Positions 15,863-50,149 of a stretch of 64,000 nucleotides of DNA are shown piece after piece; position 1 is the first letter of the stretch, and each line of letters starts with the position of its first letter. A program made the position numbers and the translations under genes. The DNA is taken from positions 6,461 through 70,460 of IMG/VR virus record IMGVR_UViG_3300001598_000050; one strand, given 5' to 3'. Source of the stretch: a virus (taxonomy: Duplodnaviria > Caudoviricetes). Below the pieces are notes generated by a model, which saw nothing but the letters and a program-made list of their open reading frames with translations, was not told the origin of the DNA and ran no database searches.

Positions 15863-15889
15863 TAGATTAATGTCTCCTTATACCTATGA

Positions 15890-17122: not shown

Positions 17123-17124
17123 TT

Positions 17125-17679
17125 TTAGGTCAAAAGACCATAGACATCTTTAAGTATACTATATAATACAATGTATTTGTCGTGAATTTCATACGGTACA
17201 AGATTTTTCCAAGCTTCTTCTTGATTATCTAACATAAGTCTTCTGCAATCTGATGCTGAAATCTTAATATTATTTCTTGCAATTCTCAGTTCATCCATTT
17301 TAGGTGCAAGTTCATCAGTAAACCAAGAAGCTCTCTCTTTTTCACAGCCGGTAATATACAAATCTGGCTGCTTATGAAATTCGCCTTCAAATGTATTTAA
17401 TACATATTTACCCCAAATATCATTATTGCCAGCACCAATATCAGGCAAAGGTCTTATTAAAAGCTGCTTTGAAGCTACTTGTACTGAAAATACCGCTTCA
17501 AGCATTTCTTTTCTGAGCGTAAACGGAAATGGATTTGTTCGTGTATCACTTTCCTGTGAAGAACCTACATAAACAACCACTCTGTTACATATTTCAAGAG
17601 CATGTTCAATAATTGCTTTATGCCCTAAATGTAAGGTCTGAAAACGACCTACCACTAATCCTAAATCGTATAATTTCAT
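17125..17679 (-). CDS. nicotinamide/nicotinate mononucleotide adenylyltransferase (NadM/NadR-N-like)
   Basis: VVGRFQTLHLGH (HxGH), VGSSQ, NPFPF, ISASDCR. Confidence 0.88.
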   Translation of the reverse strand: MKLYDLGLVVGRFQTLHLGHKAIIEHALEICNRVVVYVGSSQESDTRTNPFPFTLRKEMLEAVFSVQVASKQLLIRPLPDIGAGNNDIWGKYVLNTFEGEFHKQPDLYITGCEKERASWFTDELAPKMDELRIARNNIKISASDCRRLMLDNQEEAWKNLVPYEIHDKYIVLYSILKDVYGLLT

Positions 17680-17734
17680 TTAGTTATCCTCTTTGCCAAT
17701 CGATATCTTCAATCCAACGTACAGTAATGCATGA

Positions 17735-18118
17735 CTATTCAATATAGCGGGCGCGTTCATATTCCACAACGTAATGCCTGTCCGCAGATTCAAATTTTTC
17801 TTTTATTCTTGTGTAAAGATAATAAAATGCATCTTCATATGCGAGAAACTCCGCATAACATTCGTCGTTTTTAATTGTAGGATGAAAAGTATTGTATAAG
17901 TGGTGTACATATCCTTCAATACTTAAAGTTGCAGTTGGAACTGGTTCATCACTAACAGCTATTTGGTCTTGAAGAAAATTACAACAACTTGAAAGCTCTA
18001 TATTAAACAGGAAAGATAGCCACTTTACACGTCTCTTATGACTTTTTTCTTTTTTCAGTTTAAGTTTAGACTCGTTATCCAATGCTTCTTCTTTTAGCTT
18101 AGTATAAGTTTTAATCAT
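17735..18118 (-). CDS. hypothetical protein; frame continues past the TAG to a TAA at 17684
   Basis: 127-aa ORF; after the TAG the same frame reads SCITVRWIEDIDWQRG-TAA, ending 4 nt before the next start. Confidence 0.6.
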   Translation of the reverse strand: MIKTYTKLKEEALDNESKLKLKKEKSHKRRVKWLSFLFNIELSSCCNFLQDQIAVSDEPVPTATLSIEGYVHHLYNTFHPTIKNDECYAEFLAYEDAFYYLYTRIKEKFESADRHYVVEYERARYIE

Positions 18119-18496
18119 TTAGTTATCCTCTGTGTGAACAACCGCATACAAAGTATAATACTTTGCTACGTCAGTATTTCCAAGCAGGAATTCTCTATAA
18201 TTTAATGGGGTACATAAAACCAGTATGTCATGTTTTTCATCTTTTATAGAACTTGCCCAAGTATCTTCGAGGAAATTAGGGTCATTCACAGAGGCATATT
18301 TACACTCATAAAAGACATTTTTTCCGCTAGGAAGTAATATTTCACCTTGAATTTTGTCTACATAACAAATATTATAACCCCTTCTCTCCATATGTTTAAT
18401 TGCAAAGTCTGCCCACCCGAGTAAATTTTCACACATATCATCAAAAAATCTATGTAAACACTTTCTATAATATGTGCTCGTTACATTATTATTCAT
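18119..18496 (-). CDS. hypothetical protein
   Basis: start moved to MNNNVT at 18496, overlapping the pncB stop. Confidence 0.65.
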   Translation of the reverse strand: MNNNVTSTYYRKCLHRFFDDMCENLLGWADFAIKHMERRGYNICYVDKIQGEILLPSGKNVFYECKYASVNDPNFLEDTWASSIKDEKHDILVLCTPLNYREFLLGNTDVAKYYTLYAVVHTEDN

Positions 18497-19706
18497 TTTC
18501 CATTCTCCACTTGATAGTTCTTTCAAGATAGTCAACATATTCAGGATTCTTACACATACCCTTGCCAGGAGTATCAGAAACCTTCGCAACATCCATTCCA
18601 TTACATTTTGTTACTTTCATAACAATATTCAGCGGGTTAACATCAGTGTCATTTGAAATATAAGTTCCAATACCAAATGCAACCTTTGCTCTGCCTTCAA
18701 AATACTTAAACAGCTTGGTAGCTTTTTCGAAGTTCAGGCTGTCAGAGAAAAGCAGTGTCTTTGTTCTGGGGTCAATGCCAAGTTTCTTATAGTGGGCAAT
18801 AATCTTTTCACCCCATTCATAAGGGTCGCCAGAATCATGTCTTACACCTGAGAAAAGTGTTGCAAGAGTCAGATCAAAATCCTTAAGGAAACAATCAGTA
18901 GTAATAGTATCAGTAAGTGCAATACCATTAAGTACGCCATATTCCTTTACCCAAGCATTGAGGGCAAAATAATTAGAATAAGCTGCATTATGCTTGTGGT
19001 CACCCTGACCTGTACACATAATCCATTCATGCGCCATAGTTCCTACAGGTGTAATGCCATACTTCTTTGCAAGATATACGTTAGAGGTACCTACAAAGAA
19101 ACTGTTTGCAAGGTCATCGTTTCTTTCAGCTTCTGCAAGCTTACTTACTGCATATTCCTGAGCTTCTGCGGAAAGTCTTCTTCTGAGACCAAATTCTGAA
19201 AATGTTCCAAGTTCATATTCGCCAGTAGTCAGCGAGAGAAGTTTCTTATCAAACTTGTGCTTAAACTGCTTAATCAGCTCGTCATAGTTATAAGCCATTC
19301 TGAAATAAACTTCGTTTACAATAGCAAGTGTCGGAATTTCATACATTGAAGTATTAAGCCAAGTGCCCTTTGCTTCAAGTGTCATTCCGCAACCTTCATC
19401 GCCGGTATAGTTGATTTCGAAATCTTCATAGCGCGGCTTCCAAATTCTCAGATGATTGATGTATGAACCACGAATCCACTTAATCTTGTCAAGATATTCG
19501 AGCTCGTCTTCTGTAAATCTCAAATCACAATAAAGCTTAATCTGACGCTTAATTTCTTCGACCATCGCAAAAGTAAATTTTACGTCTTTATTTCTGCATT
19601 TAAATGTCCAAGTAGTCATATATTCGGGAAATTGATGATATATGCTCTGGCCCATCGAGAATTTATAGCTGTCTGTTTCGCAAAGAGACTTGATAATCTG
19701 TTCCAT
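18489..19706 (-). CDS. pncB: nicotinate phosphoribosyltransferase
   Basis: ETDSYKFSM, FSEFGLRRR, GTMAHEW, GVRHDSGDP, LFSDSL, FGIGT, VAKVSDTPGKGMC; start MEQIIK at 19706 after RBS GAGG. Confidence 0.93.
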   Translation of the reverse strand: MEQIIKSLCETDSYKFSMGQSIYHQFPEYMTTWTFKCRNKDVKFTFAMVEEIKRQIKLYCDLRFTEDELEYLDKIKWIRGSYINHLRIWKPRYEDFEINYTGDEGCGMTLEAKGTWLNTSMYEIPTLAIVNEVYFRMAYNYDELIKQFKHKFDKKLLSLTTGEYELGTFSEFGLRRRLSAEAQEYAVSKLAEAERNDDLANSFFVGTSNVYLAKKYGITPVGTMAHEWIMCTGQGDHKHNAAYSNYFALNAWVKEYGVLNGIALTDTITTDCFLKDFDLTLATLFSGVRHDSGDPYEWGEKIIAHYKKLGIDPRTKTLLFSDSLNFEKATKLFKYFEGRAKVAFGIGTYISNDTDVNPLNIVMKVTKCNGMDVAKVSDTPGKGMCKNPEYVDYLERTIKWRMENE

Positions 19707-19758
19707 AGTATTACCTCTATTTTTGATTTTTTCTATAATATTATACAATATTTTAGAA

Positions 19759-20406
19759 TTAATTAATGAATAAAAATGTCTTTTCAAAGATATTTTCCGG
19801 GCTGTGGAAATCAACATCTTGATATCCGTCTTTGTTTACGAGATAACTGATGTGCTTACCCTGTCTTAGGTCGTGGAGATCATTTGCAATAATGTAGTTC
19901 ATGTCATTCTTGGTGCAGAGTCGCTGCGCAACCTCGATAATATGTTCCTTAGAAACATTTTCGAGAAGCTTGAAACCAACAAGTGTTGCATCAGGGAACC
20001 ACTCTTTGAGGTGAGAAATAAGCTTGGTTGTAAGCCCAAGCTTAACTGTCAGATGGGGTTCATAAGACGAGATCTTGGTGTTATCATTGACTTTGCATTC
20101 GGGATTGGTAAGAACTTCGAGCACAGCTTCAGCTGTTAATTCCTTCCCCTTAAGCTTTTCAACAATTTCATTAGCCATATCTTCCATTCTGAATGAGAAG
20201 GCTGGCTTATAATCACCGACAGCTGCGGCATGGATAACGAGATCATAGTGAGTTGTTTTTTCAGCTTCCAGCGCATTGTACATCTGTTCAGTTGTTTCAA
20301 TCTGAACCGTCTTAACATGAGGGTTTGAAGCAAGGTTGTATCTTTCATACAGTCCGCCTCTTGCAACGGAACGCGTGCAAATAAGAGTTACGTCACAATC
20401 GGCAGA
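19759..20406 (-). pseudogene. 5'-truncated CoaB-like phosphopantothenate-cysteine ligase
   Basis: frame open from 20406 (DCDVTLICTR...VQIETTEQMYNALE...LVIHAAAVGDY...LVGFKL...IIANDL); the N-terminal GGT/SSG region is absent and there is an in-frame TAA at 20409-20407. Confidence 0.7.
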
Positions 20407-24528: not shown

Positions 24529-25841
24529 TCAAAATTCAAGCTGGTCTGTCTCACCCGATAATACAGCTTCAATAGCTTCCTGTGGTATTTCAGCATGTGC
24601 TTTAAAGACCTGCTGACGGGCTGCGTCTTTATCCATACCTGATTTCTCTAACTTCTGATATTCTTCAAGAATTGCTGCCGCGTATTCATCTGCATACCAG
24701 CGGCCTACTACATACGCATCACAGCTTTGAGGCACGTCATCTCCGACTTCTGCTGCTGCAGCTATCATAACTTCAGGTAAACGCTTAGCAACTCTGTCTG
24801 CATAATAAGCAGGACATTCCATAAGCAGTTCATCGTGTACAGGAATAATCAGCTTTGCCTGACAGTCCTTCAGCTCCTGGTCTCTCGAAATATCTACCAT
24901 AGCTATCTTAGTCAACGAGGCCGCGGATCCTTGTACACGAGCATTAAAGCACTGTCTCGCTGCCTGAGAAATACGTCCTGTCCATGCAAAAAGGTCTACA
25001 CGATCATTCGGAATAAATGTAGGCAGTTTATCAGCACAATCAGCCCTGAAACGGTCCAGGATTGCGTCGAACTCTGCATGGGCAGGTAAAATAACGTCTG
25101 TACTCTGTCGGCCTTTCTGGAGCTTGTAGGACCGTGTGGACAAGAGCTCTTTTATCGCTGTAATATCCTTCATAAGCCTTTCGCGGCAAGAAGCACTGTA
25201 TTTATCTGCTTTTTTGTCAAGATCGTAAAAACTCTTAGCATCAAGATACCATTCAGGATTTGCTGCAATTTTTTTAAGCTTGCTGAAAGTAGCATTTGCC
25301 ATAGAGTACTCTGCTTTATAAACAGGCTTATAGTCAGGGTCTTCTTTGGCAGACTGTACATCTGTTGCAAGCTTTCTTGCATTAGCTAAAACAGCTTCTG
25401 CCAGCATTATTACTGTCCAAATCTCTTCCGGATCATTCTGAGTACGCTTATTTGAACAACCTAAGAACGGATTAAATGTTGCACCCTCATCCTTAAGATC
25501 CTTCAGCTTGGCTTCATAAGGCTGCATATTGATATCTTGCAGTCTTCTTCTGCGACCGACAAAATCTTCTACATAGCCATTTTTACGTAAAAATTCTTTT
25601 GAGCCCTCAATAGCTTCGTGCACTTTCGGAAAACCTGCAAAGAAATTATCCAAAAGTTCCTGTCCTTTTACTCGGGCCTCATCACCGGTAAGACCCATTT
25701 TAGCGCCTGCAGTTGCGGCTGACATCCCGTAGGACGTGGCTAGCGCTAAAGGTTCAACACCTTGCCAACGGAACGTCTTTCTTTGCCCGCTTTATTAAGT
25801 ACCTTTGCTGGGGACTTAACGACAATTGTTGCTGAACTCAT
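24529..25841 (-). CDS. polA: family-A DNA polymerase, C-terminal piece (motifs B and C); needs an 8-nt skip at 25741-25748
   Basis: RBS GAAAGGAAGGTGA, ATG at 25841, MSSATIVVKSPAKVLNKAGKERRSVGKVLNL-[TAGCGCTA]-ATSYGM...GRRRRL...NARVQGSAA...PVHDEL. Confidence 0.85.
25741..25748 (-). other. 8-nt coding gap in polA motif B (putative translational bypass, CUU-UAG-CG-CUA)
   Basis: removing TAGCGCTA restores R-x3-K-x7-YG spacing (RSVGKVLNLATSYG). Confidence 0.8.
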
Positions 25842-26489: not shown

Positions 26490-28322
26490 TTAAATACTTT
26501 TTGTCCAAATATATTTTTTACTTCCTGCACCAAAAAGCTGCGCAATAGAAGCGTCCTTCAGTTCAGCATGACGACGAGGCTTTCGGTTAACAACCTGTCC
26601 GTTCTTTAACAGCCACTTCATGTCAGGGCCTGTGTAGCCGGCAAATTGCATTCCGGCGGCTTCATAGCTTCGGCCGTCAAATTTATTAAAGTCGCAATAA
26701 CTGAAAATTTTACTTGGCCGATAATCGGTAATAAAATGTTTTAAAAGCTTAGACACTCCGCCAACTACTATATTATTGCTGCCCGGACAGCCACGAATAA
26801 TTTCCCACTCGGTGTCTGTACTAATATTTCTATTGTACCGGGTATGACTGAAACTCATCAACTGCACAAGCTGTCCTTCATAAAATAATCCATAAGTAAC
26901 CTGTGCTGCACGATGTCCCTGTAAATGTACCTGTTCATTTAAAACAGCAGCCTCCGCATTTGTAATTTGGCGAATCTCACAATTACGAGCATAAACACGA
27001 GACTTGACTCTACCTAAAGCAATATCTAGCATCAATTTAATTTTTTCACGCATAGTCGGATCTTCCCATTCATACTCCCAAATATGGATGAGCCTAATAC
27101 CAGCGGCTTCAGCAGATTTAGACTTATTAAAATGATAATTTTTATCCGGCTGTACTTCAGTAGAGTGCCAGTAAGTGCCATTAAATTCGATTCCAATTTT
27201 TTTACTTGGAATATAAATATCAATTTCTTTACCACTGAGGACTGTCCTGCTATTCATTTCGCATAAGTCAGCTCCGATATAATCTGCAATTTCCTGTTCA
27301 TAATGACTTATTCCAGTGTACTGCTTCTTAATCATACCAAGTAAATTATTCTTACTTAATAAATAATAAGCATTATCACGAGAAATCTGAAGCTGTTGAG
27401 CAATATCATAGATAGATTTATCTTTGCAAAAGTCAGCAAGGGCCACAGGGTCTTCAAATAAACTTAAATATAAATCCGAATAATTCTCAGCAGAATACTT
27501 ATTCTTGCGCGCAGTCTGACAGCGCTTCTGCCTTATTTCTGGATTATTCTGCCACTCTGTTGATAAAAAGGCATAGTCTGTGCCATAAGTAGCCTGGTTA
27601 TACTGCTTAATGGCTTCTTTTCCTTTTTCGGAGCCTAAAAAAGTATTTGCGCCATAACGTTCTTGGCAGGTTTTCTTTGCTTGCACCCGATTGGTAAAAT
27701 GTGTATCACCATAGCGTTCTTGCTTAGTAGTACTGCTCTTTTGTTTTAGTTCTTCTACCTGAAAAGTGTTATCACAACCATACCTAGCCTGACAAGTTTC
27801 TATACATTTTGCACGGTTATTAAAATTAGGATCTCCATAACGTTCCAGCTTAGTTTGTCTGGCTTTTTCCTTAATTTCTTCAGGAGTCACATTCGAGGGC
27901 TGTAGATGCAGTTTATCTCCCCAGGTAGGGCTATATAGTGCCTTATTGGTTGCAATTTGCTCCTCCCGCTTGGTATGGGGCGTAATATTATATAAGTGAA
28001 GCAGATAATTTACAAAATATTCTTTAACTGCAAAATGCTCTGCAGTTAAATATGCAGAGCTGGTTTTGTAGTAATCAACTATTTCTTGCCGCTGTTCTTC
28101 TGGGACTTCATCGTAACCGTCAGCGTGCAAATGTATATATAGATTTGCTTCCGCAAAAGAATGTGGTGGCAAATTATGCAGTTTACAAAAAATATTCATT
28201 GCACTGCGAGATAAATTAAATTTTCGAGCGGTTTCTGCTACATTGTGCTCTTTGTAGTAGTCACAAATTGCCTGGATGGTTTGTGCATCCAGCGATTCAG
28301 CCGCGCTTTTTCGGTTACCCAT
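26490..28322 (-). mobile_element. free-standing putative homing endonuclease (Hef/Vsr-like PD-(D/E)XK) inserted in polA
   Basis: N-terminal HTH-like repeats, (E/A)RYG repeats, EIDIYIPSKKIGIEFNGTYWHS nuclease motif, C-terminal VYARNCEIRQ domain; sits between two polA pieces. Confidence 0.8.
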
Positions 28323-28324
28323 AG

Positions 28325-30229
28325 TTATACCTCGATTTGATATGTTTTTGCGACAGAATTATATGAGATATTTTTTATCATTTCCTGTGTACCGTCTACT
28401 AAAATTGCACTGCCTGCTGTAAGACTGTCACAATATTTAAAACCGTCAGGAGTCTCAACTTCAGTTATTTCGGGCACAGTAAATGTATTTTCAGCGTCTG
28501 CCTCGATTAATTTAGCAGATGATGCAGCCTTGAATAGCATACGGCATATTTTTCCGTCGCCTCTGCTTGGTATATTTTGAATGTTAATTCCACTCACAGT
28601 AACCTGTTCGTCTTTATCATTCAGCCAATGCCATTTGCCACCCGATGAATATCTGCCTGTATTTGTGCCTGTAGCATTGAGATGAAAGCGAATTCTACCA
28701 TCTGGCCAGTGCTTTGCAAGCTCAGGAATAACGTCAATATAAGTTGTAATCAACTTCATAAAAGCCCTGCGCTTCAGCAGCATACTTGCAAGATTAGCCG
28801 CATAAGCCCATTTTTTGTCTTTTGAAATATCATCAGGGCGGTCAAGGGCTTCTTCAGCCTCTTCCATATCACCGTCTTCATTCGTCTCAGCTTCTTCGGG
28901 ATCTTCAAGCATAGGCAGATATCCTGCAAGCTTTTCTTTAATTTCTATCAGCTGATCTTTACCTGTTTTCCTGTTAGTTGTGTCGCCAGCTGTTACTTCA
29001 AGCACATCGTAAAACAGAATTGCAAGCTGAGTAGGTGAAGCAAAGTTTACAGGATTGTCCAGCTGTGCTGCTTTTGATTTACCTATCTTATAGCGGTTTC
29101 CGTCGTCATCGATGTTAGGATATTCCTTTTCAATCTTTGCCTGTGCCATTGTAGTCTTTTTAGGTACATACGTTCTTGTCTGCTCATTGTTCTCAGGCTT
29201 CAGACGCCACTCATTAATTACGCCAGCAATAGCTGACATGGTTTCATCTACTTTTCTGTCAAGCTGATCAAGTAACTCGTTATACTTCTCTTTCAGTTTT
29301 GCACCTAGTTTCTCGTCTACACCAACTCCTGTGAGCTCCATCTCAGCTGTAACTACTGTTATAGGCATTTCTACTTCATGAAATAACCAGCGAATACCCG
29401 GAAGCATTCTGGTACCTGTCATATCGAGATGCGGGCCATACTCGTCTTTTGTAAGTTCTTTTTCCTGCCGCTCATAGAGTTTATCAGTCATAAATGCGTC
29501 GGTTGCGCTATAAAGTGCAAAGACTTCCGGATCTACATCAGCATATGCAACGTGCTCAAACAGTTTTTCAATATCATATTTTTCCTGCTTAGGGTCTATC
29601 TTAGTTACATACTGAGACTTTAAACCTGCAAGCTCATTTTCATTCAGAAGTCTTGCACAGGTCATTGTGTCCCAGTAGGGCTTCATTTCAACTCCGCAAG
29701 TGCATTTCAGAACTTCGTAATCGAATTTAGCGTTATGAAAAATTTGCTTTATTCCTGAATCATTGATTTTTATGAGTGCTTCTGTAATATCCTTTTCAGT
29801 CAGCTGCCAGGAAAGACGTTCTTTCGTCTCAGAATTTCGATGATTAATCGGAACATAAGCCTGTTTACCGCCCGGATAATAAAAACACGGGCCCATAAGC
29901 TGACAGTAGCTGCAGTCTGTGGTATTATTTGTTTCAGTATCTATTGCAATTCGGCCAGAAGCAATAGCATTTGCAATATAGGTGTCAAGCTGTTCTTTCG
30001 TCTTAATAACCAGAACATTTTGTTTTTGTTTTCCGAGTACTCTGTGAACAGTTGAATTAATAATAGCAAGTCTCTCCACAAGAGTAATTTTTCTGGACTT
30101 TAAAGCTTTTCCAGCATCAATATCCTCTGCGGGTTTCTCAAGCTTTTTCTTAATCTTCTTGGTGCTCACTTTGGGCAACTGAATGTCTAAGTCATCACCA
30201 AAAATAGACACATAACTGTAGTTTTCCAT
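28325..30229 (-). CDS. polA: family-A DNA polymerase, N-terminal piece (3'-5' exonuclease and thumb) with a C-terminal appendage
   Basis: IAIDTET (Exo I), IFHNAKFD (Exo II), YSATDA (Exo III), TGTNTGRYSS, INIQNIPSR, RMLFKA. Confidence 0.92.
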   Translation of the reverse strand: MENYSYVSIFGDDLDIQLPKVSTKKIKKKLEKPAEDIDAGKALKSRKITLVERLAIINSTVHRVLGKQKQNVLVIKTKEQLDTYIANAIASGRIAIDTETNNTTDCSYCQLMGPCFYYPGGKQAYVPINHRNSETKERLSWQLTEKDITEALIKINDSGIKQIFHNAKFDYEVLKCTCGVEMKPYWDTMTCARLLNENELAGLKSQYVTKIDPKQEKYDIEKLFEHVAYADVDPEVFALYSATDAFMTDKLYERQEKELTKDEYGPHLDMTGTRMLPGIRWLFHEVEMPITVVTAEMELTGVGVDEKLGAKLKEKYNELLDQLDRKVDETMSAIAGVINEWRLKPENNEQTRTYVPKKTTMAQAKIEKEYPNIDDDGNRYKIGKSKAAQLDNPVNFASPTQLAILFYDVLEVTAGDTTNRKTGKDQLIEIKEKLAGYLPMLEDPEEAETNEDGDMEEAEEALDRPDDISKDKKWAYAANLASMLLKRRAFMKLITTYIDVIPELAKHWPDGRIRFHLNATGTNTGRYSSGGKWHWLNDKDEQVTVSGINIQNIPSRGDGKICRMLFKAASSAKLIEADAENTFTVPEITEVETPDGFKYCDSLTAGSAILVDGTQEMIKNISYNSVAKTYQIEV

Positions 30230-36693: not shown

Positions 36694-37488
36694 TTATTTT
36701 ACAAGCTTCAGCAAATTAGAAATTAAGGCCAATCGTGTAGTGAGTCCGCATCCGCCGGGTACTGGAGTCTTTTCACGGATCGTAACGGCTTCACAGTCAC
36801 CGCAAAGCTTACCTTCATCGTTTCTGTTAAGTCCGACATCAACTATAAAGCAATTTTTGCAAGTAGTCTTAATATCGTCATCTGTTAAAGTATTTCTGTG
36901 GCCAGTTGCAACAACAATAAGGTCAGCTCCGTCAAGTGCAGCCATTTTATTATAAGCAGATGTTTTACTGTGAATTACAGTTACATTGCAGTCTCGGTCA
37001 AGAAGCATTCTGGCAATAGGACGCCCGACAATATTACTTCTGCCAATTACTACAGCTTTCTTATCTCTGAATGTAAAATTCTGAGCTTCAAGATAATCAA
37101 TTATACCCGTCGGAGTTGCAGGGTCCACTAAGTGCTTTTTTGAAAAACCATCAACGTCTTTCTCGGGCTTTATAGCTTCAATTACTTTTGTCTCACTTAT
37201 GTGTTCAGGAAGTGGCAGTTGAACAATAAATCCGGATACGGTATCATCTGTATTAAGCTCTTCAATCAGCTGCAAGAGCTCATCTTCTGTTGTCTGATAA
37301 CTAAGCTTATGGTGAGTACAGGGAATACCTACTTCATCACAGTCTTTCAGCTTTCCACGCACATAACTGTTTGAAGCAGGATTATCACCCAACTGAATAA
37401 TAACTAAGGTAGGCTTTTTTTCTATGGCAGCAATTTCTGCCTTAAGTGCTTCTTTTCTCTGTTCTGCATATTCTTTAATTGTCTGCAT
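36694..37488 (-). CDS. folD: methylenetetrahydrofolate dehydrogenase/cyclohydrolase
   Basis: SNSYVRGK, FIVQLPLP, KDVDG, VIGRSNIVGRP, VDVG, TPVPGGCG. Confidence 0.95.
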   Translation of the reverse strand: MQTIKEYAEQRKEALKAEIAAIEKKPTLVIIQLGDNPASNSYVRGKLKDCDEVGIPCTHHKLSYQTTEDELLQLIEELNTDDTVSGFIVQLPLPEHISETKVIEAIKPEKDVDGFSKKHLVDPATPTGIIDYLEAQNFTFRDKKAVVIGRSNIVGRPIARMLLDRDCNVTVIHSKTSAYNKMAALDGADLIVVATGHRNTLTDDDIKTTCKNCFIVDVGLNRNDEGKLCGDCEAVTIREKTPVPGGCGLTTRLALISNLLKLVK

Positions 37489-37503: not shown

Positions 37504-39135
37504 TTACATTTTACAAGCGAGCGGTTCTTTTGGTAAACCAGGCATTGTCATTACAGCGCCAGTAAGCGGTACAATAAATCCAGCTCCGGCGCTCAATCGA
37601 ACTTCACGTACATGAATAGTAAAGCCAGACGGTGCACCAAGAACTTTTGCGTCGTCTGTAAGTGAATTCGGTGTTTTTGCCATACAAACAGCTAAGTCTC
37701 CATATCCCATAGCTGTATACTGCTTAATCTGCTCTTCAGCTAATTCTGAATATTCAACCTTGTCAGCACCGTAGATTTGTCTGCAAATTGTGCCTATTTT
37801 TAATTTAATGCTGTCAGTAGCCGCAAGATCATATAGAGGTTTAAAATGTAATCCGAGTTTAGCTTTGTGATATTCTGGCAAATTAACACAGTACATAACT
37901 TGCTTGGCTAAATCCTCTGAGCCCGTGCTACCTTCAATTGCTGCGTTATTAATGGAATATGTCCAATGATAATAATCGTCCTTAAAAATATCTGTTAATG
38001 CTTCTAACTCTGCATCAGTATCACTTGGAAATCTGTTAATTGCGACAACTACTGGAACTCTATACTTGCGCATATTATAATAATGTTTTTCAAGATTGCA
38101 AATACCAGCTTTCATCGCTTCAATATTTTCCTTATCAAGGTCTTCAAAAGCGACACCACCATGCAGCTTTAATGCACGCACAGTTGCGACTAAAACTATA
38201 CAGTCTGGCTTTAATCCAGCTCTTTGACATTTAATATCAAGGAACTTCTCGGCGCCTAAATCAGCCCCAAAGCCTGCTTCGGTAACTACAACGTCAGCAA
38301 GCTTTAAGCCAAGCTTTGTTGCAATAACTGAGTTGCAGCCGTGCGCAATATTAGCGAAGGGACCACCGTGCACTAACACAGGGTTCTCTTCAAGAGTCTG
38401 AACAAGATTAGGACTCATTGCTGTGTGCATAAGCTTCTGGATAGCGCCTCTGATATGTAAATCTGCTACTCTTACAGGTAGCTCATCATAATCATAAGCA
38501 ACAATAATATTTTCAACGCGATCTAAAAATTCTTTTTCGTCATTTGCAATACAAAAAACCGCCATAAGTTCTGATGCAACTGTAATTACAAATTCCGACT
38601 TATGCTGGCCAGAGTATTTTTTGTCGCTATAATTAACAGTAATATCCCTGAGTGATCGATCATTCATGTCAAGGGCTCTTGTCCAAACAATTCTGTCTGG
38701 ATTAATGTTAAGCTCATTTCCTTGATAAATATGATTCTCTATCATTGCAGCAATTAAATTAATTGTAGAGGTCAGCGCATGAAAATCACCTGTAAAATGA
38801 AGGTTGATGTCATCACTTGGCACGATAGTTGACTTTAAGGCTCCGACTGCGCCGCCTTTAATACCAAACACAGGCCCCAAAGAAGGCTCTCTGAGACACG
38901 CAATTGAATTTACGCCAATATGCCTTAAACCATCATGAAGCCCAATTGTAGTAGTTGTCTTGCCTTCTCCAGCCTTTGTGGGTGTGATGGCAGTAACCAA
39001 CACAAGCTTACCGTCAGGCTTGTCTTTCAACTCCTTCATGTATTCCAAGTCAATCTTAGCCTTATCCCAGCCATATGGAATAACTTTTTCCTTAGGTATT
39101 CCAAGACTTTCCGCTAAATCAATAATGTTCTTCAA
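37504..39135 (-). CDS. fhs: formate-tetrahydrofolate ligase
   Basis: TPTKAGEGKTTT, LREPSLGP, HFTGDFHA, HGGPFANIAHG, TEAGFGADLG, MTMPGLP; likely TTG start at 39135 after AAGGAGG. Confidence 0.95.
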   Translation of the reverse strand: MKNIIDLAESLGIPKEKVIPYGWDKAKIDLEYMKELKDKPDGKLVLVTAITPTKAGEGKTTTTIGLHDGLRHIGVNSIACLREPSLGPVFGIKGGAVGALKSTIVPSDDINLHFTGDFHALTSTINLIAAMIENHIYQGNELNINPDRIVWTRALDMNDRSLRDITVNYSDKKYSGQHKSEFVITVASELMAVFCIANDEKEFLDRVENIIVAYDYDELPVRVADLHIRGAIQKLMHTAMSPNLVQTLEENPVLVHGGPFANIAHGCNSVIATKLGLKLADVVVTEAGFGADLGAEKFLDIKCQRAGLKPDCIVLVATVRALKLHGGVAFEDLDKENIEAMKAGICNLEKHYYNMRKYRVPVVVAINRFPSDTDAELEALTDIFKDDYYHWTYSINNAAIEGSTGSEDLAKQVMYCVNLPEYHKAKLGLHFKPLYDLAATDSIKLKIGTICRQIYGADKVEYSELAEEQIKQYTAMGYGDLAVCMAKTPNSLTDDAKVLGAPSGFTIHVREVRLSAGAGFIVPLTGAVMTMPGLPKEPLACKM

Positions 39136-39139
39136 ACAA

Positions 39140-39412
39140 TCAATCCTCCTTGGTAAATGTAAAGGCAGCAATATTTATAAAATTAGCCAGACTGCCTAAA
39201 TCATCTATACAATATGTTTTATGAAAATCGGGAGCATGAGTAAGATAGTCAGCAAATGAAATGACCTCTATTCCTGTATAACCATAGGCATGAATCTTTT
39301 CAAGCATTCTGTCTACATTCTGACAGACTATTACTGAATGTTCTTCAGCTGCAATTTCAATGAGTTCTTTTGTTTTTCCGCATCCGGGTCCTTTGATAAT
39401 TCCTTTTACCAT
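39140..39412 (-). CDS. small P-loop-containing hypothetical protein
   Basis: IIKGPGCGKTKELI Walker A-like motif in a 90-aa ORF. Confidence 0.6.
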   Translation of the reverse strand: MVKGIIKGPGCGKTKELIEIAAEEHSVIVCQNVDRMLEKIHAYGYTGIEVISFADYLTHAPDFHKTYCIDDLGSLANFINIAAFTFTKED

Positions 39413-40356: not shown

Positions 40357-40722
40357 TCAGGAAAGAACTTCTTGCGGAACTAAAAATGACCGTGAAAACT
40401 CTTCAGCACTGTATGTAGCCAACATAAGTGACTCTTTGTCCGTTGAGCTCACTACCCAGACACTAGGCTTAATTCTGATCGGTTTTTCAGAATAGTTATC
40501 AACTTCTACATATGCAGGAGTATCTCCGAATGGGTCAAAACTTCCATGGCCGTATACCCAGTCTTTAAGCAACATTTTATCGGGTTCTAAGCCTGGCTTA
40601 ACAAAAACTACATTTGCCTGAGTAAACTTATAGAGTAAGTTATCATATAGTTCTTTATAGTTAGTTCCGTCAAAATAAACAGCAGTGCAACTACTTTCTT
40701 TTAAGCAACACTTAATCATCAT
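40357..40722 (-). CDS. hypothetical protein
   Basis: 121-aa ORF overlapping the folA end. Confidence 0.65.
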   Translation of the reverse strand: MMIKCCLKESSCTAVYFDGTNYKELYDNLLYKFTQANVVFVKPGLEPDKMLLKDWVYGHGSFDPFGDTPAYVEVDNYSEKPIRIKPSVWVVSSTDKESLMLATYSAEEFSRSFLVPQEVLS

Positions 40723-41248
40723 GTATCACCATTTCACGCTCTGGCTGTAAACGGCTGTAAGTTACAAAGCTGAACTTGGTTCCATTTTCTTCCAGGATAT
40801 CGTCTTTTTCTGTCATGCTTGTAATAATAAAGTCAGGGCTCTCGTCAAGATTAGGAAAAAATACAGTAGCATCTTTATCTGCTGCCTCTACCTTTGTTAC
40901 AAACACTTCATCACAGTAAGGTAACATAGACTTATACATCATTCCGCCACCAATAACCCAGACCGTATTAGTTATGCTCAGTACCTTTACCATTTTTACA
41001 AGCTGCTCAAAGTCGTGTACACAAATACAATCTGCATATTCATGACCTTCAGGACAAAGCACAATAGTTGAACGGCCTTTCAGCGGCTTCTGCTTTGGAA
41101 AACTCCGCAGAGTATTTTCGCCGCAGACAACAATCTTATTCATTGTCTTAGTCCTAAACTGCTGCATATCTGCCTGCAGGTTAAATAGCAAACCGTTATT
41201 CTTACCTATACCCCAGTTCTTGTCAACTGCTACAATAGCTTTAATCAT
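40712..41248 (-). CDS. folA: dihydrofolate reductase
   Basis: AIVAVDKNWGIGKNNGL, DMQQFRTKT, PLKGR, WVIGGGMMY, FFP. Confidence 0.93.
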   Translation of the reverse strand: MIKAIVAVDKNWGIGKNNGLLFNLQADMQQFRTKTMNKIVVCGENTLRSFPKQKPLKGRSTIVLCPEGHEYADCICVHDFEQLVKMVKVLSITNTVWVIGGGMMYKSMLPYCDEVFVTKVEAADKDATVFFPNLDESPDFIITSMTEKDDILEENGTKFSFVTYSRLQPEREMVIHDD

Positions 41249-43323: not shown

Positions 43324-43932
43324 TTAATTTAGTGAGCAAGCGCTGAGGTCTAAAATTGCCTGCAATTCGCCTGCGCTTTTTTCTGTATAAATTCTCTCAA
43401 GCCATTTCTTATTAGCTTTATACCAGACAAAAAATACTTCTTCACACATCTGGTAAAGATTCCAGAGCATAAACTCAGTAAAAAATGCTGAATCTTCGTG
43501 CATAATTCTTTTGCCTTTGCATTTAGTTTCCCAGTAATTCCAGAGCATCTCAGGCTGCCAGTTATCTTTATTATAAGCTTTAGAAGCGCCAAGCATATCA
43601 CAGACACTTTCTACTACATATTTATAGGGCATCTTAATTGGAATAATTTCGCCGATTTCCGATTCATCCCAGAAAAATTGAAAATGATGTTTGTTGATAT
43701 GGTAGTGGTGCGTCCAAGACGGTGAATAGCCGAGCTGCTCTCTGCACACCTGATGAGGTGACTTTTTGCCTGTATAGTACTTAGCTATAGACAGCTCTGT
43801 TAATGAATACTTACTAAGATCATGTGTAAGTCCTTGCCAGTATAATCCGGCTTTAAAACAAGCTTTTCTTACATACTTTCTGTGTATATGTACTGTTTGT
43901 AAATGTTTTACAAGATTTTTAAAATTACTCAT
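43324..43932 (-). CDS. His-rich HD-like phage protein
   Basis: HLQTVHIHRKYV, HDLSKYS, HHYHINKHH, CDMLGA; start at 43932 after GAGGA. Confidence 0.65.
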   Translation of the reverse strand: MSNFKNLVKHLQTVHIHRKYVRKACFKAGLYWQGLTHDLSKYSLTELSIAKYYTGKKSPHQVCREQLGYSPSWTHHYHINKHHFQFFWDESEIGEIIPIKMPYKYVVESVCDMLGASKAYNKDNWQPEMLWNYWETKCKGKRIMHEDSAFFTEFMLWNLYQMCEEVFFVWYKANKKWLERIYTEKSAGELQAILDLSACSLN

Positions 43933-43963
43933 TACTGTCCTCATTCAAAATTTTTCTTAATAT

Positions 43964-45530: not shown

Positions 45531-46376
45531 TTATTCTGCCACTTCAAACTTTTTTTCAAGCTTTGTAGCTTCATAGTTGTCAATATGAAAGTCATTTTCA
45601 GTAAAAGCATAAAAGTCTTTTACTTCCGGATTAAGCCAGAACTTTGGTGCAGGATATTCAGGATTCTGCATGACTTCTTTAATCAGCTCTTCATGTCTGT
45701 CATAAATATGCAAGTTCATAATTACATGCACAAACTCGCCGGGCTCATAGCCGCATGCCTGTGCCATCATACATTGCAACATAGCATACTGAATTTCATC
45801 CCAGCCACCAGGTGCACCTGCGGCAAGGGCATCTGCCGACCGCTGCAGTAAAGTCATATTAAGCTTATTACCTTGAACATCCCAGTACGTTTCATAGACA
45901 CACGGCGCAAGTGCCATATCTTTAAGGTCGTCAGGACGCCACATAGTTACAATCATTCTACGGTTCATCGGATTATTCTTAAGATTGTAGATAAGCGCAT
46001 CTACCTGGTCCATAAAGCCTTCAGGAAGCTCATATTTCTGTGCAAGCTGATATGAATAAGACTTTCCGATTGTACCATCAGGCTGTTCCCAAGCACGCCA
46101 GATGCCAGCAGCAGGACCAAGCTCATCAACTACATTAGACTTTTTCTGCCACATCCATAAAAGCTCTCTGATACAATTCTTAAACATCTGTTTTCTGATT
46201 GTCAGTGCAGGAAATTCTTTTGAAAGGTCATAACGCGTAACATAGCTGAAAATCTTCTTAGTGTGAGCAGGAGTTCCGTCAGGCCACTTAGGTCTTACAG
46301 TATAATCGATGTCATTAAAGCCTTCTTCAAGAATTTTTGTACAGGCATCTTTAAAGTATTTGTCTGCAAGACTCAT
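45531..46376 (-). CDS. thyA: thymidylate synthase-family enzyme with Asp at the Asn177 position
   Basis: ELLWMW, GKSYSYQ, RRMIVTMW, LAPCVY, QRSAD, GGWDEIQY, NLHIYDRH. Confidence 0.9.
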   Translation of the reverse strand: MSLADKYFKDACTKILEEGFNDIDYTVRPKWPDGTPAHTKKIFSYVTRYDLSKEFPALTIRKQMFKNCIRELLWMWQKKSNVVDELGPAAGIWRAWEQPDGTIGKSYSYQLAQKYELPEGFMDQVDALIYNLKNNPMNRRMIVTMWRPDDLKDMALAPCVYETYWDVQGNKLNMTLLQRSADALAAGAPGGWDEIQYAMLQCMMAQACGYEPGEFVHVIMNLHIYDRHEELIKEVMQNPEYPAPKFWLNPEVKDFYAFTENDFHIDNYEATKLEKKFEVAE

Positions 46377-46645
46377 TCTTCAATTTCCTTCTTTACTGCA
46401 GACTCAGTAGCTTCTGCTGCAACAGCAGCTGACTCAGATTTTGTTTCTGTTTCAATAGACTCCTTCGCCTGCGGACGAAGTTTCTGCCCCCAGTTACACA
46501 CAAATCCGCCATCACCGGCAGGTTCGATATTGATTGAGTTGTAAAAAGGATTTTCGGGCGAGTATGACATATTCATAAGAACTGTCAGAAGTGCGATAAG
46601 TTCACCGTCATTAATCATTTTGGGAGTGAAATACATTGAATTCAT
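46373..46645 (-). CDS. hypothetical protein
   Basis: 90-aa ORF overlapping the thyA start. Confidence 0.6.
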   Translation of the reverse strand: MNSMYFTPKMINDGELIALLTVLMNMSYSPENPFYNSINIEPAGDGGFVCNWGQKLRPQAKESIETETKSESAAVAAEATESAVKKEIEE

Positions 46646-46659
46646 TTTTTATACCTCGT

Positions 46660-47019
46660 TTATTTATTATCTCCGTCAAAAATATTGACATTTTCTTTAT
46701 CTGATTTTATTGCTCTGCCAGTATCCTGTACAAGACCTAACAGAAGAATATCATAATTTACTGCATCGGTCAGCTTTTCCGTCCAACGCTCAAGTGTAAA
46801 CTGCTCTTTACTGTTAATCATAGCAATAATGCTTTCAAGATGCTTTAACTGATAGCCGAGCAGTACCTGCTCAGGTGTCCAGTTAGAAATAGCTGCTCCG
46901 CGTTTAAATGAGTCAAATCTGTCTTCAGTCAGATTATACTCGCCTTGCTTTTTAATAAGCAAACTTCGAATATATTCCAATTCTTTGTCTGCAATACTGT
47001 TAAAGTCTTCTCTTGTCAT
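46660..47019 (-). CDS. all-alpha protein resembling nucleotide-modification-associated / NTP pyrophosphohydrolase-like domains
   Basis: KKQGEY...DRFDSF...KHLESI...WTEKLTDAVNYDILL pattern. Confidence 0.45.
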   Translation of the reverse strand: MTREDFNSIADKELEYIRSLLIKKQGEYNLTEDRFDSFKRGAAISNWTPEQVLLGYQLKHLESIIAMINSKEQFTLERWTEKLTDAVNYDILLLGLVQDTGRAIKSDKENVNIFDGDNK

Positions 47020-47622: not shown

Positions 47623-48870
47623 TCATTTATTTTCCTTATAGTGACTAAACCATTCTTCAAGCACAGGCATATCTGCAATTCCGGCTGTAACTGAGTTTAA
47701 AAATACCTGGCCTGGTGTTATACAGTCCGGGAAGATTTTACGTCTTGTTGCGTTCAGCTGATGTCTAAGAGTCTCGTTTTCTTCTCTTAGCTCCGAAATT
47801 CTAGCCCTCAGGCTGTCTCTGTTATAGAATATGTATGACTTAAACTCATTAATCAGTGCGACAATGCCAGCCAGTACAGACTGGTCAGACTCTGTATCAA
47901 TTGAATTGAATTTTGTGATAAAAGCTTCAATAGCTTTATTATCTTTGTAGTCTTCTGCTTCAAGTTGCGCAATAGCTTCATCATGCTCACGGGTATTTAT
48001 ATTAATTTGCTGAATAATATCACTGCACTCCCTGAGTACTTCAGGAGTCAATTTCGGGTTCATGGACCTTTGTTGCAGCTGTGCACATGCTTTCCAACGG
48101 ACTATCAGTTTTTCAGGCAGACCTAAAAAGTTTCGTCTACTCAGTGCTTGATATTTATCTGCATCATTGTGCCCGACAAGTATGCCATTTGCATAGTATA
48201 AGTTATTAGAAGATACTAAGTTATAGTGTCTTTCTGGAATCGGATGATATAATTCACTGAAACTTATAATTTTTGACATTTCCGTGTCAGAAATTCTCAC
48301 ATTGTCTCCAGCTTCAAACGCTTTACTTGAATGAATTCGATTATCCTCTTCACACCAGAGCGAATGCTCTTTATAAATTTCAAGAGTCGATCCGCTGGCA
48401 GTTACTAACATTGAATAAATCTGATCAATACCTGTGCATTCTGAAATAAGTGCCATTGCTGTAACTGCTATTTTTGCAGAGGGATCATAAGATAAAATTA
48501 AATCACCTGTTTTAACGTCTTCAATGTTTTTTGTAGTTCCGTCAGCCATAGTAATCTGGGTTCCTTCTATAAAACAGGTTTTCTGGAAACCATCTTCTAC
48601 CAGCTTAGCTTCAAGTTCAGTAAGCTTTAGGCTTATTACATCATCTATGACATCTATATACTCACTACCAGCTAAAGTATTTTGTTTTGCATCCCATACA
48701 GCTGTTTTTACCTCAGGAATATTTGTTTCGTGGGACATCGTAGTTCCATTGTATTTCGGTCTGTTTGACAGCTCGTCAAAGTCAGAAGTGCCACCACTGA
48801 CATTTTGCTTATATTTTTTTCCGTTTATTTCAAATGAGTCCACTAGTATTACTTCATCATTGTTTGGCAT
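47623..48870 (-). CDS. tail-associated protein with a Hint (BIL-type) domain
   Basis: CFIEGTQITMADG...YNLVSSNNLYYANGILVGHN-D at aa 99-235; N-terminal RPKY...IPEVKTAVWD module shared with the 50208 gene. Confidence 0.75.
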   Translation of the reverse strand: MPNNDEVILVDSFEINGKKYKQNVSGGTSDFDELSNRPKYNGTTMSHETNIPEVKTAVWDAKQNTLAGSEYIDVIDDVISLKLTELEAKLVEDGFQKTCFIEGTQITMADGTTKNIEDVKTGDLILSYDPSAKIAVTAMALISECTGIDQIYSMLVTASGSTLEIYKEHSLWCEEDNRIHSSKAFEAGDNVRISDTEMSKIISFSELYHPIPERHYNLVSSNNLYYANGILVGHNDADKYQALSRRNFLGLPEKLIVRWKACAQLQQRSMNPKLTPEVLRECSDIIQQININTREHDEAIAQLEAEDYKDNKAIEAFITKFNSIDTESDQSVLAGIVALINEFKSYIFYNRDSLRARISELREENETLRHQLNATRRKIFPDCITPGQVFLNSVTAGIADMPVLEEWFSHYKENK

Positions 48871-48976: not shown

Positions 48977-50149
48977 TTATATTCCAACTGTGCAAGGTAA
49001 TGTAGGCTCTTTATCATCCACATAAAATGGGGTCAAATCATCGTCTCGAATCTTGTCACGCTCAGTTTTGTTTGTAAAATCAGGTAACTCGATATTATTC
49101 GAACCACCTAATATACTTCTCCAGCCGTATATCTGAACAGCTGACATATTTACTGCTTTGTAAACATCAAAGATAGGTTTTTCTTCGCCTCGAATAGCTT
49201 TGAAAAAGTTATCAAGTAATAACACGTCAGAACCTTGATGCTGCAGACCGTTGAAGTCATACTTCTTTCTAAGTTCTTCTGAATACTCTACGTCATTAAT
49301 CAGATTAGAAATATCAAGCCCTTCAGGTTTAGACCACGTATTATACCAGTATCTTAAAGAATAAGCGTGACCTCTAACTGTTTCAATACCGCCAAGATCA
49401 CCTACAGCACGATAATATCTGCCGTGTCCAGCATAATGCGTGCATCCGCTTATTCGAAGCAAAGGTCCTTCTTTCGTGCTTACGAGCATTACTCCTGCCA
49501 TTTCGGTATAATGATAGCCATGTTCATCTGCAAAGTCTTTTGGACCTTGTGCAGGCTTAGCTACAACGCTGGTTGGAGTTATATTTAATACATGCATCAA
49601 TGGTGCTAAAGCGTGATCAGCATAAAATGTACAAGGTCTATATGCACGCCAATGTTCTTCTGCTGTCATTTGAAGCCTTTTAGCTTTTGCAGCAAGCATT
49701 GGATGGCAATATTCACCTTCTGCATATACGATTTGTCCGAATTCGCCGTTGTCAACTCGCTGTTTCATTTGTAAAACAGTAGGAATACAGGCATAATTTT
49801 CAAGAAGAGAATAAACTTTTCCGCTTTCTTCTACGGCCTCTACAAGGTCCACACATTCCTTTGGTGTTACCGCTGCAGTGATTTCAGACAATACATGCTT
49901 ACCAGACTTCAATGCTTGAATAGCCATTCTTGCATGAGAACAATAAAAATTGGATATAATTATAGCGTTGATTTCATCATCTGCGAGCATATCTTCATAT
50001 GTTTCATAATACTGATATTGCTTACAACGACTATCCTCTTTGCCATAATTGAAATATCCTTTAAGTCGAACCTCTGGCTCGAACTGGTGAATACATTTAC
50101 GTATCGTACCAGCTCGACCACCCGATCCTACTATACCTAAAACAATCAT
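48977..50149 (-). CDS. Gfo/Idh/MocA-family NAD(P)-dependent oxidoreductase
   Basis: GIVGSGGRA, YEDMLADDEINAIIISNFYCSHARMAIQALKSGKHVLSE, LENY, YAEGEYCH. Confidence 0.85.
   Translation of the reverse strand: MIVLGIVGSGGRAGTIRKCIHQFEPEVRLKGYFNYGKEDSRCKQYQYYETYEDMLADDEINAIIISNFYCSHARMAIQALKSGKHVLSEITAAVTPKECVDLVEAVEESGKVYSLLENYACIPTVLQMKQRVDNGEFGQIVYAEGEYCHPMLAAKAKRLQMTAEEHWRAYRPCTFYADHALAPLMHVLNITPTSVVAKPAQGPKDFADEHGYHYTEMAGVMLVSTKEGPLLRISGCTHYAGHGRYYRAVGDLGGIETVRGHAYSLRYWYNTWSKPEGLDISNLINDVEYSEELRKKYDFNGLQHQGSDVLLLDNFFKAIRGEEKPIFDVYKAVNMSAVQIYGWRSILGGSNNIELPDFTNKTERDKIRDDDLTPFYVDDKEPTLPCTVGI

Follow-up and report, generated by a model that had tools for sequence, protein, structure and literature searches.

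Base specificity in thymidylate synthase (TS) depends on the residue at position 177 (Escherichia coli numbering, used here for conserved positions). Changing the asparagine at this position to aspartate in two model TSs, those of E. coli and L. casei, shifts specificity from deoxyuridine monophosphate (dUMP) to deoxycytidine monophosphate (dCMP) and yields 5-methyl-dCMP (5mdCMP), as far as the original studies are recounted in PMC8670742, where they are cited. The TS homologues of cytosine-modified metavirome contigs mostly carry Asp177 (PMC8670742, eLife 2021), and 5-methyldeoxycytidine (5mdC) is made in vivo by the homologue of phage Xp12 and by five of seven natural Asp177 homologues (bioRxiv 10.1101/2024.12.05.627091). 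According to a published residue code, Leu143 accompanies a methyl product, Asp or Glu at 143 a hydroxymethyl product, and Asn169 marks 5-hydroxy-dCMP synthases (PMC13326640, 2026). Deaminase-family genes lie within 3 kb of the TS gene in 70% of cases on modified contigs versus 6.1% on unmodified ones; these linked deaminases can be selective for 5-methylcytosine (5mC), turning 5mdCTP into dTTP, and IMG/VR has already been screened for the combination of an Asp177 ThyA with a deaminase (bioRxiv 10.1101/2024.12.05.627091). Here we describe a ThyA homologue with aspartate at this position, encoded in a 64,000-nucleotide stretch of phage DNA (the window; positions 6461-70460 of the 70,460-bp IMG/VR virus record IMGVR_UViG_3300001598_000050). 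Its residues and its place in the tree make it a probable new addition to the known dCMP-methylating class, one that evolved independently. Enzymes of this kind are already described for phages and metaviromes; what sets this locus apart is its independent origin, a C-terminal glutamate, one-carbon units drawn from formate and a pair of uncharacterised partner families.

The module of Xp12 is shared by PaMx74, Donnerlittchen, ZQG1 and Mallos (Bradleyvirinae, Pamexvirus). In these Xp12-type phages the genes run PRA-PH pyrophosphohydrolase, ThyA with Asp177, deaminase and dihydrofolate reductase (DHFR), and the window likewise has ThyA, deaminase and DHFR in that order. The window enzyme also shares with theirs the fold, Asp177, Cys146, Arg166/Ser167, Asp169, His207, Tyr209 and a C-terminal Glu, and in the Xp12-type phages and the relatives of the window alike the ThyA homologue is the sole TS-family gene. 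There are also differences. In the alignment made here, the clade to which the window enzyme belongs (the GGWD clade) has a GGW insertion, Tyr181, Val147 and Leu143, whereas the Xp12-type enzymes have His181, Pro147 and Asn143. In place of the upstream PRA-PH pyrophosphohydrolase, the window encodes a 119-amino-acid (aa) helical protein and HD-like DUF5662 protein(s), and the deaminases of the two groups are barely alike. Finally, Xp12-type genomes measure about 60 kb, whereas window-type genomes measure about 220 kb and also encode formate-tetrahydrofolate (THF) ligase and FolD.

By overall sequence the closest characterised enzymes are Bacillus subtilis ThyA and phi3T ThyP3 (1B02, 1BKO), about 47-50% identical over the full length and sharing an N-terminal insert, Val147 and the C-terminal ...FEVA- tail. 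These are working dUMP-specific TSs in cells and differ from the window enzyme in having Asn177, no three-residue insertion, Asn168, Leu172-Gly173 and a hydrophobic C-terminal residue. The metavirome Asp177 ThyA enzymes found in cis with 5mC-selective deaminases (mSCD-B5; bioRxiv 10.1101/2024.12.05.627091) and the MetaGPA TSs (PMC8670742) resemble the window in combining Asp177 with a nearby PF00383 deaminase on an uncultured phage contig. In the window, however, the distance from the ThyA homologue to the deaminase is 3.8 kb and so exceeds 3 kb, and in one complete relative the deaminase is missing. T4 gp42 and RB69 gp48 have the TS fold and the aspartate at the specificity site as well, but both have Asp or Glu at 143, and the 5-hydroxy type has Asn169, where the window enzyme has Leu143 and Asp169.

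The aspartate at the base-specificity position

The 281-aa protein matches PF00303 (Thymidylat_synt) over residues 7-272 with E = 1.7e-73 and 247.5 bits, against a cut-off of 24.3, and its best solved relatives are the B. subtilis ThyA entries 1B02/1BKO (E about 1e-72, with roughly half of the residues identical). HMMER pairs the segment GAPGGWDEIQY with GNP--FNVFQY of B. subtilis ThyA and with GVP--FNIASY of the E. coli-like Brucella TS 3IX6, and a MAFFT alignment that includes E. coli ThyA (from MG1655) places the aspartate, Asp193, in the identical column to Asn177. Because the segment from Asp193 to the conserved Tyr181 is ungapped and the spacing onward to His207/Tyr209 is kept, the three-residue insertion must lie upstream of the aspartate and the assignment of its position is unambiguous. 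The sequence-only reading had placed an aspartate (codon GAT) where TSs have Asn177, and both alignments agree with it; the asparagine of a canonical dUMP-specific ThyA is not present.

To judge conservation we used the 120 closest proteins (65-77% identity) from a collection of 5.8 billion proteins. Asp177 is found in 119 of them, the GG(W/F)D motif in all but one, and the insertion loop of the APGG region in all 120. Every one also keeps Leu143, Cys146, Glu58, Trp80, Tyr94, Arg126/127, Arg166, Ser167, Asp169, His207 and Tyr209. The window protein itself is intact, with the catalytic Cys146, the general base Glu58, the phosphate-binding Arg126/Arg127/Arg166/Ser167, and Asp169, His207 and Tyr209. 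Among 23 distinct DNA copies the aspartate is encoded by GAT in 15 and by GAC in 8, and since both codons occur, the residue is held by purifying selection. Asp193 is not a chance or sequencing variant. The sole Asn form, P0051, sits on a 1.2-kb contig and is nested among Asp forms in the tree.

The same alignment bears on the product. The window protein shows the Xp12-type combination: Asp177, a retained Asp169 and a non-acidic residue 143. An acidic residue 143, as in T4-type hydroxymethylases, is absent, with Leu in 120/120, and so is the Asn169 of RB69 gp48-type 5-hydroxy-dCMP synthases, with Asp in 120/120. Because its residues read Asp177/Leu143/Asp169 under the published code, we predict a 5-methyl-dCMP synthase.

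The C-terminal residue of TS closes the active site. It is Glu in 112 of the 120 clade members, and Glu or Gln in all six Xp12-type enzymes, while all Asn-type TSs that were compared end in Ile or Val; one independent Asp-type enzyme, L030, ends in Val, unlike the GGWD clade and the Xp12-type enzymes. Among 64 long stop-to-stop frames on the minus strand of the window, 48 end in TAA, 15 in TGA and a single one in TAG; this near-absence of TAG as a terminator could be a matter of composition or a sign that TAG is recoded, as happens in other large gut phages. The C-terminal Glu is real whatever the status of TAG, because the stop codon that follows it is TAA or TGA and never TAG. It may be a second, convergent marker of dCMP-methylating TS homologues.

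In a maximum-likelihood tree (support given as value pairs), the GGWD clade is monophyletic (100/99) and sister to a gut clade of Asn-type enzymes, within a group that resembles B. subtilis ThyA (97/91). L030, with the motif NNWDVCHH, falls inside the Asn-type gut clade (98/88), and the Xp12-type clade lies beyond E. coli ThyA (100/100). Because E. coli ThyA separates the two clades with 100% support, the aspartate of the GGWD clade has an origin independent of that in the Xp12 clade; the tree does not show common descent with Xp12 and PaMx74. On this topology the likeness to Xp12-type enzymes is convergent, and at least three independent changes from Asn to Asp, with one apparent reversal, are required.

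The clade is restricted to phage contexts. A DNA-level search with the pattern RS(G/A)D-x7-GG(W/F)D-xx-(E/Q)Y, covering one genome per species for 185,579 prokaryote species, returned 11 matching places. Three were TS genes, all on contigs of metagenome-assembled genomes that repeat the phage gene order, and among these species genomes none was a cellular genome using the GGWD clade as its thymidylate synthase. Every source that names proteins of the clade calls them "thymidylate synthase", and the clade motif does not occur in the text of the eLife supplements (PMC8670742).

The carrier is a large gut or rumen phage. Its record is 31% complete by CheckV estimate, nearly all genes of the window lie on the minus strand, and the composition is 62% A+T. 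When 12 kb of the window was compared by megablast with 50,697 phage records, there were zero matches, so the window phage has no cultured close relative there. Contigs bearing homologues reach 238 kb and, with genes for gyrase/topoisomerase, DnaB, primase and DHFR, resemble those of large phages. Related loci at an identity of at least 65% number 28 in IMG/VR, four of them in near-complete records (220-233 kb, 95-100% complete), one with direct terminal repeats. In each of these four relatives the ThyA homologue is the only PF00303 gene, and ThyX (PF02511) is absent; a ThyX or a second PF00303 gene serving as the "real" TS was therefore rejected.

Gene neighbourhood and partner families

Downstream of ThyA, the minus-strand order is PhoH, two small open reading frames (ORFs), DUF5662, three ORFs, deaminase, DHFR, formate-THF ligase, FolD, dUTPase and replication genes (Table 1). 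The ORFs between ThyA and the deaminase, two small ones and then three more, belong to no known family, and the 90-aa ORF on the upstream side was not found in the related loci. A deaminase-family gene and DHFR thus accompany ThyA, as in the Xp12-type module, and by tblastn the deaminase gave 22 hits in the related loci and DHFR, which occurs in most of them, gave 29.

Table 1. Coordinates in the window of the ThyA homologue, its marked residues and its neighbours
Feature	Position	Strand	Basis
ThyA-family protein, 281 aa, predicted dCMP C5-methyltransferase of the GGWD clade	45531..46376	-	PF00303
C-terminal Glu281, followed by TAA stop	45534..45536	-	Glu in 112/120 clade members
Asp193, codon GAT, equivalent to E. 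coli Asn177 (base-specificity residue)	45798..45800	-	HMMER and MAFFT alignments
Clade-specific loop APGG, residues 188-191, with 3-residue insertion between D169 and W176; folate/base-binding loop	45804..45815	-	Gaps in HMMER/MAFFT alignments to B. subtilis, Brucella and E. coli TS
Asp182, equivalent to E. coli Asp169	45831..45833	-	Asp in 120/120; rule from PMC13326640
Leu156-Ala-Pro-Cys159, equivalent to E. coli Leu143 to Cys146; catalytic Cys and product-linked Leu	45900..45911	-	Invariant in 120/120; rule from PMC13326640
90-aa ORF between the 119-aa protein and ThyA, no known family	46373..46645	-	No Pfam/PHROG match
119-aa all-alpha protein, phrog_6802, frequent upstream neighbour of ThyA	46660..47019	-	phrog_6802, E = 9.6e-26
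DUF5662 protein, 206 aa, conserved ThyA neighbour	43324..43944	-	PF18907, E = 8.6e-30
dCMP/cytidine deaminase-family protein, 147 aa	41241..41684	-	PF00383, E = 1.6e-17
Dihydrofolate reductase (DHFR)	40712..41248	-	PF00186, E = 4.7e-36
Formate-tetrahydrofolate ligase	37504..39171	-	PF01268, E = 4.2e-226
FolD, methylene-THF dehydrogenase/cyclohydrolase	36694..37488	-	PF00763 and PF02882
Trimeric dUTPase-family protein, 136 aa	35349..35759	-	PF00692, E = 2e-25

FolD and formate-THF ligase together yield 5,10-methylene-THF (5,10-CH2-THF) from formate, and the presence of both genes confirms that the phage carries its own supply of this cofactor, as the sequence-only reading had proposed. DHFR recycles dihydrofolate (DHF), which is produced by reductive methylation but not by hydroxymethylation. 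The deaminase and dUTPase recorded in that reading are present as well. It had taken the deaminase as a caveat, fitting ordinary synthesis of thymidine monophosphate (dTMP), and this argument is reversed, because known systems (the Xp12/PaMx74 arrangement) pair an Asp-type ThyA with a deaminase; a deaminase beside ThyA is a published hallmark of the cytosine-modified contigs described above. The nearest solved relatives of the window deaminase are the dCMP deaminases of Streptococcus mutans and cyanophage S-TIM5. It could be an ordinary dCMP deaminase or one that acts on 5-methyl-dC nucleotides; a 5mC-selective enzyme is unsupported here because the likeness to Xp12-type deaminases is weak.

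Relatives within this branch of the family give the same indication. The nearest Asn-type relatives are four human-gut phage scaffolds whose enzymes are 46-52% identical, carry the motif NNWNVxQY and end in Ile or Val. DHFR lies directly downstream of their TS gene, and within 8 kb of it none of the four has a deaminase, a DUF5662 gene or a gene for the 119-aa protein. In L030, the independent Asp-type case, the gene immediately downstream is of the deaminase family. In G001, a complete relative of 223 kb with direct terminal repeats, an Asp-type ThyA occurs together with DHFR, formate-THF ligase and FolD, and a deaminase-family gene is lacking, so any 5-methyl-dCMP made there would not be converted to dTMP by phage genes. 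This counts against a route in which the methylated product serves only to make thymidylate.

DUF5662 is one of the two partner families, with 29 tblastn hits that cover most related loci, and in several loci a second DUF5662 paralogue lies directly upstream of ThyA. Its invariant residues are H21, H41-D42, H80, H86-H87 and D116. An AlphaFold2 model (pLDDT, the per-residue confidence score, 91) resembles HD-type domains, which make up four of the top five structural matches (Z 5.4-6.8 over 125-146 residues; DvhD 6.8, Bd1817 6.4, PgpH 5.4) and include HD-GYP and PgpH HD domains. Its Pfam match is to PF18907 only, with no HD model, and Foldseek returned nothing for the model at E <= 0.001. A 77-member ESM Atlas cluster from Actinomycetota combines DUF5662 and a 2-thiouracil desulfurase domain (PF04463) in one protein, a fusion that suggests pyrimidine chemistry for the family. 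From the model and the invariant residues, DUF5662 is a candidate divergent HD-superfamily metal-dependent phosphohydrolase that would act on a pyrimidine nucleotide.

The second partner, the 119-aa protein, belongs to a family with 2526 representatives at E <= 0.001. Of the 34 related loci searched, 15 have its gene no more than about 2 kb upstream of ThyA, and three near-complete relatives lack it, so it is linked to ThyA but not obligatory. In one family member, P0150, the domain is fused to a dCMP deaminase domain; among ten long forms, the fusion partner has no Pfam domain in nine. The sequence-only reading described the protein as all-alpha and resembling nucleotide-modification-associated or pyrophosphohydrolase domains. 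AlphaFold2 upholds the first part, predicting a helical bundle (pLDDT 91), and the second part fares less well. The only near-full-length structural matches are AF_0060 (2P06, Z 7.7, 84 residues), the MazG-related 2YXH (Z 6.2) and HisE 3C90 (Z 5.9), all within helical-bundle noise, and Foldseek found nothing at E <= 0.001 (best E >= 1.2). The conserved E27, E81 and D85 fit the ExxE/ExxD pattern only partly, and no Pfam match at E <= 1 was obtained for 60 members of the family. Assignment to DUF1599/Nmad1 or MazG by sequence was rejected, there being neither a Pfam match for these 60 members nor a PDB sequence match. A MazG/HisE-like nucleotide-binding domain is possible on the basis of the model.

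The genes upstream of the Xp12 and PaMx74 ThyA homologues contain a PRA-PH domain. A HMMER comparison of the 119-aa family profile with these two pyrophosphohydrolases was not significant; with hhalign, the C-terminal domain found in Xp12-type pyrophosphohydrolases matched the family weakly (P = 0.006), sharing K-x-x-(D/E)-Y-N and D-x-(V/I)-N-Y motifs with it. In RcRudolph (L064:1295-2419) and RDJL Phi 2 (L065:1450-2496), the gene upstream of the Asp-type ThyA encodes a fusion of PRA-PH with a P-loop domain whose HGKDT motif is gp1-like, and in Xp12-type phages a helical domain with K-G-x-D-Y-N and D-L-V-N-Y motifs stands where these two phages have the P-loop domain. No C5 DNA methyltransferase was detected in the record of the window or in its relatives.

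Elsewhere, the window encodes a four-gene NAD+ salvage set (14510-19817) made up of an isochorismatase/nicotinamidase-like protein (14510-15061), NAD synthase (15062-15862), a cytidylyltransferase-like candidate for nicotinamide mononucleotide adenylyltransferase (17125-17679) and nicotinate phosphoribosyltransferase (18489-19817). A family-A DNA polymerase is divided between separate ORFs, the exonuclease with the N-terminal polymerase part at 28325-30229 and the C-terminal polymerase part at 24529-25725, and between them lies a 610-aa protein (26490-28322) with helix-turn-helix and REase_MTES_1575-like matches. A 415-aa protein (47623-48870) with a Hint/intein-like module at residues about 97-193 stands between tail-fibre-like genes and is followed by a GFO/IDH/MocA oxidoreductase (48977-50149). 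Two further observations concern a second metal-dependent phosphohydrolase-like protein (7730-8305, phrog_28876), which adjoins a thioredoxin-reductase-like flavoprotein (8318-9220), and a peptide-deformylase-family protein (97-879), which at 260 aa exceeds the 156-position Pfam domain.

Competing readings of the enzyme

We favour, with somewhat better than even confidence, the reading that the enzyme is a dCMP C5-methyltransferase whose product would pass to 5mC in phage DNA, to thymidine nucleotides via the deaminase, or to both. The TS-fold enzyme would take dCMP in place of dUMP, move the methylene of 5,10-CH2-THF to C5 and reduce it with hydride from the cofactor, giving 5-methyl-dCMP and DHF. 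The 5-methyl-dCMP would then be phosphorylated and built into phage DNA as 5-methylcytosine, as proposed for Xp12; alternatively, or in addition, the neighbouring deaminase would lead it to thymidine nucleotides by a "cytosine-first" route, also as proposed for Xp12. Supply of dCMP, through hydrolysis of dCTP or dCDP, may fall to the HD-like DUF5662 protein or to the 119-aa protein. Of the two outcomes of the favoured reading, entry of 5mC into virion DNA is the likelier, though among all readings it falls short of an even chance, and a thymidylate route alone is somewhat less likely. The sequence-only reading had offered 5-methyl- or 5-hydroxymethyl-dCMP as the product. Its choice of dCMP is supported by the residue signature, the phage-only distribution, the gene context and the published Asp177 assays; of its two products, the methyl is retained and the hydroxymethyl given up in view of Leu143, Asp169 and the linked DHFR.

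Several observations weigh against methylation of dCMP or, at the least, against complete replacement of C by 5mC. The insertion beside the aspartate reshapes the loop, and the rule derived from the E. coli and L. casei mutants may therefore not transfer. In the published assay, 5mdC was not produced by two of the seven natural Asp177 homologues (bioRxiv 10.1101/2024.12.05.627091). Neither MazG, PRA-PH, a Thymidylate_kin-family kinase nor a gp1-like kinase (queried with the RcRudolph sequence) was found in the record of the window or in the four near-complete relatives, although here, as for the C5 DNA methyltransferase, a miss with one sequence or a profile is no proof that the gene is absent; in the window no small P-loop kinase was found either. 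The deaminase scores 42 bits to the S. mutans dCMP deaminase and only 5-17 bits to Xp12-type deaminases, and a dCMP deaminase, dUTPase, DHFR and TS homologue are also the set of the conventional dTMP pathway. The main rival is an ordinary dUMP-specific TS in which the enlarged GGW loop repositions the aspartate or keeps it protonated, so that it is tolerated; the deaminase and dUTPase would then supply dUMP, and the formate, FolD and DHFR genes would boost dTMP for an A+T-rich 220-kb genome. Such a TS would make sense of the finding that near-complete relatives have no other TS-family gene and lack ThyX; dTMP there would otherwise depend on the host or the deaminase. It would also fit the retention of the TS catalytic residues, Leu143 and the C-terminal tail, the greater closeness to genuine TSs (B. 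subtilis ThyA, phi3T) than to the T4 or Xp12 enzymes, the conventional look of the deaminase beside a dUTPase, and the failure to detect a dCTPase or deoxynucleoside monophosphate kinase in the record and four relatives. We nevertheless consider it rather improbable. Asn177 is kept in the Asn-type TSs compared, and aspartate there shifts two model TSs to dCMP, at least as PMC8670742 presents those studies. Purifying selection maintains the aspartate, and none of the cellular genomes searched makes use of the clade; the nearest Asn-type phage relatives lack the deaminase, DUF5662 and 119-aa neighbours; and the C-terminal Glu is common to proven dCMP methylases.

If the enzyme does take dCMP, the product might still differ. 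Synthesis of 5-hydroxymethyl-dCMP, as by T4 gp42, or of 5-hydroxy-dCMP, as by RB69 gp48, would be the start of a hypermodified cytosine, and enzymes of both types share Asp177 with the window protein. We regard this as very improbable, given Leu143 and Asp169 in 120/120 with no Asp/Glu143 and no Asn169, the C-terminal tail that is kept, and a tightly linked DHFR for which a THF-releasing hydroxymethylase has no need. Furthermore, no glycosyltransferase or other hypermodification gene is present among the annotated ORFs of the window, though about a third of these have no family. Relaxed specificity, with dUMP and dCMP both methylated to give dTMP directly along with partial 5mC, is improbable too, if slightly less so. 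The undetected dCTP-clearing enzyme and dedicated kinase would fit partial rather than complete replacement, and P0051, whose Asn is nested among Asp forms, suggests a scaffold that tolerates both residues, but this sequence is a singleton on a short contig and may be an error.

Methylation of dCMP, the reading we favour, can be extended to the whole lineage, although in this full form it is doubtful. Gut and rumen phages of about 220 kb would replace C by 5mC with an independent dCMP methylase derived from a B. subtilis-type ThyA, fed with one-carbon units from formate and with dCMP from DUF5662 and/or the 119-aa protein, not from MazG/PRA-PH, and the C-terminal Glu would be a second signature of the enzyme. 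If dCMP methylation is correct, cytosine would be fully or partly 5-methylated in a common group of large phages from gut and rumen, with effects on escape from restriction, on attack by modification-dependent nucleases, and on metagenome recovery and base-calling. The switch from Asn to Asp would have been made repeatedly in nature, in three independent lineages of the tree, each of which recruited a deaminase neighbour, and the residue code for annotating thymidylate-synthase homologues would be strengthened. For DUF5662 and phrog_6802, the link to the ThyA homologue provides a concrete functional hypothesis.

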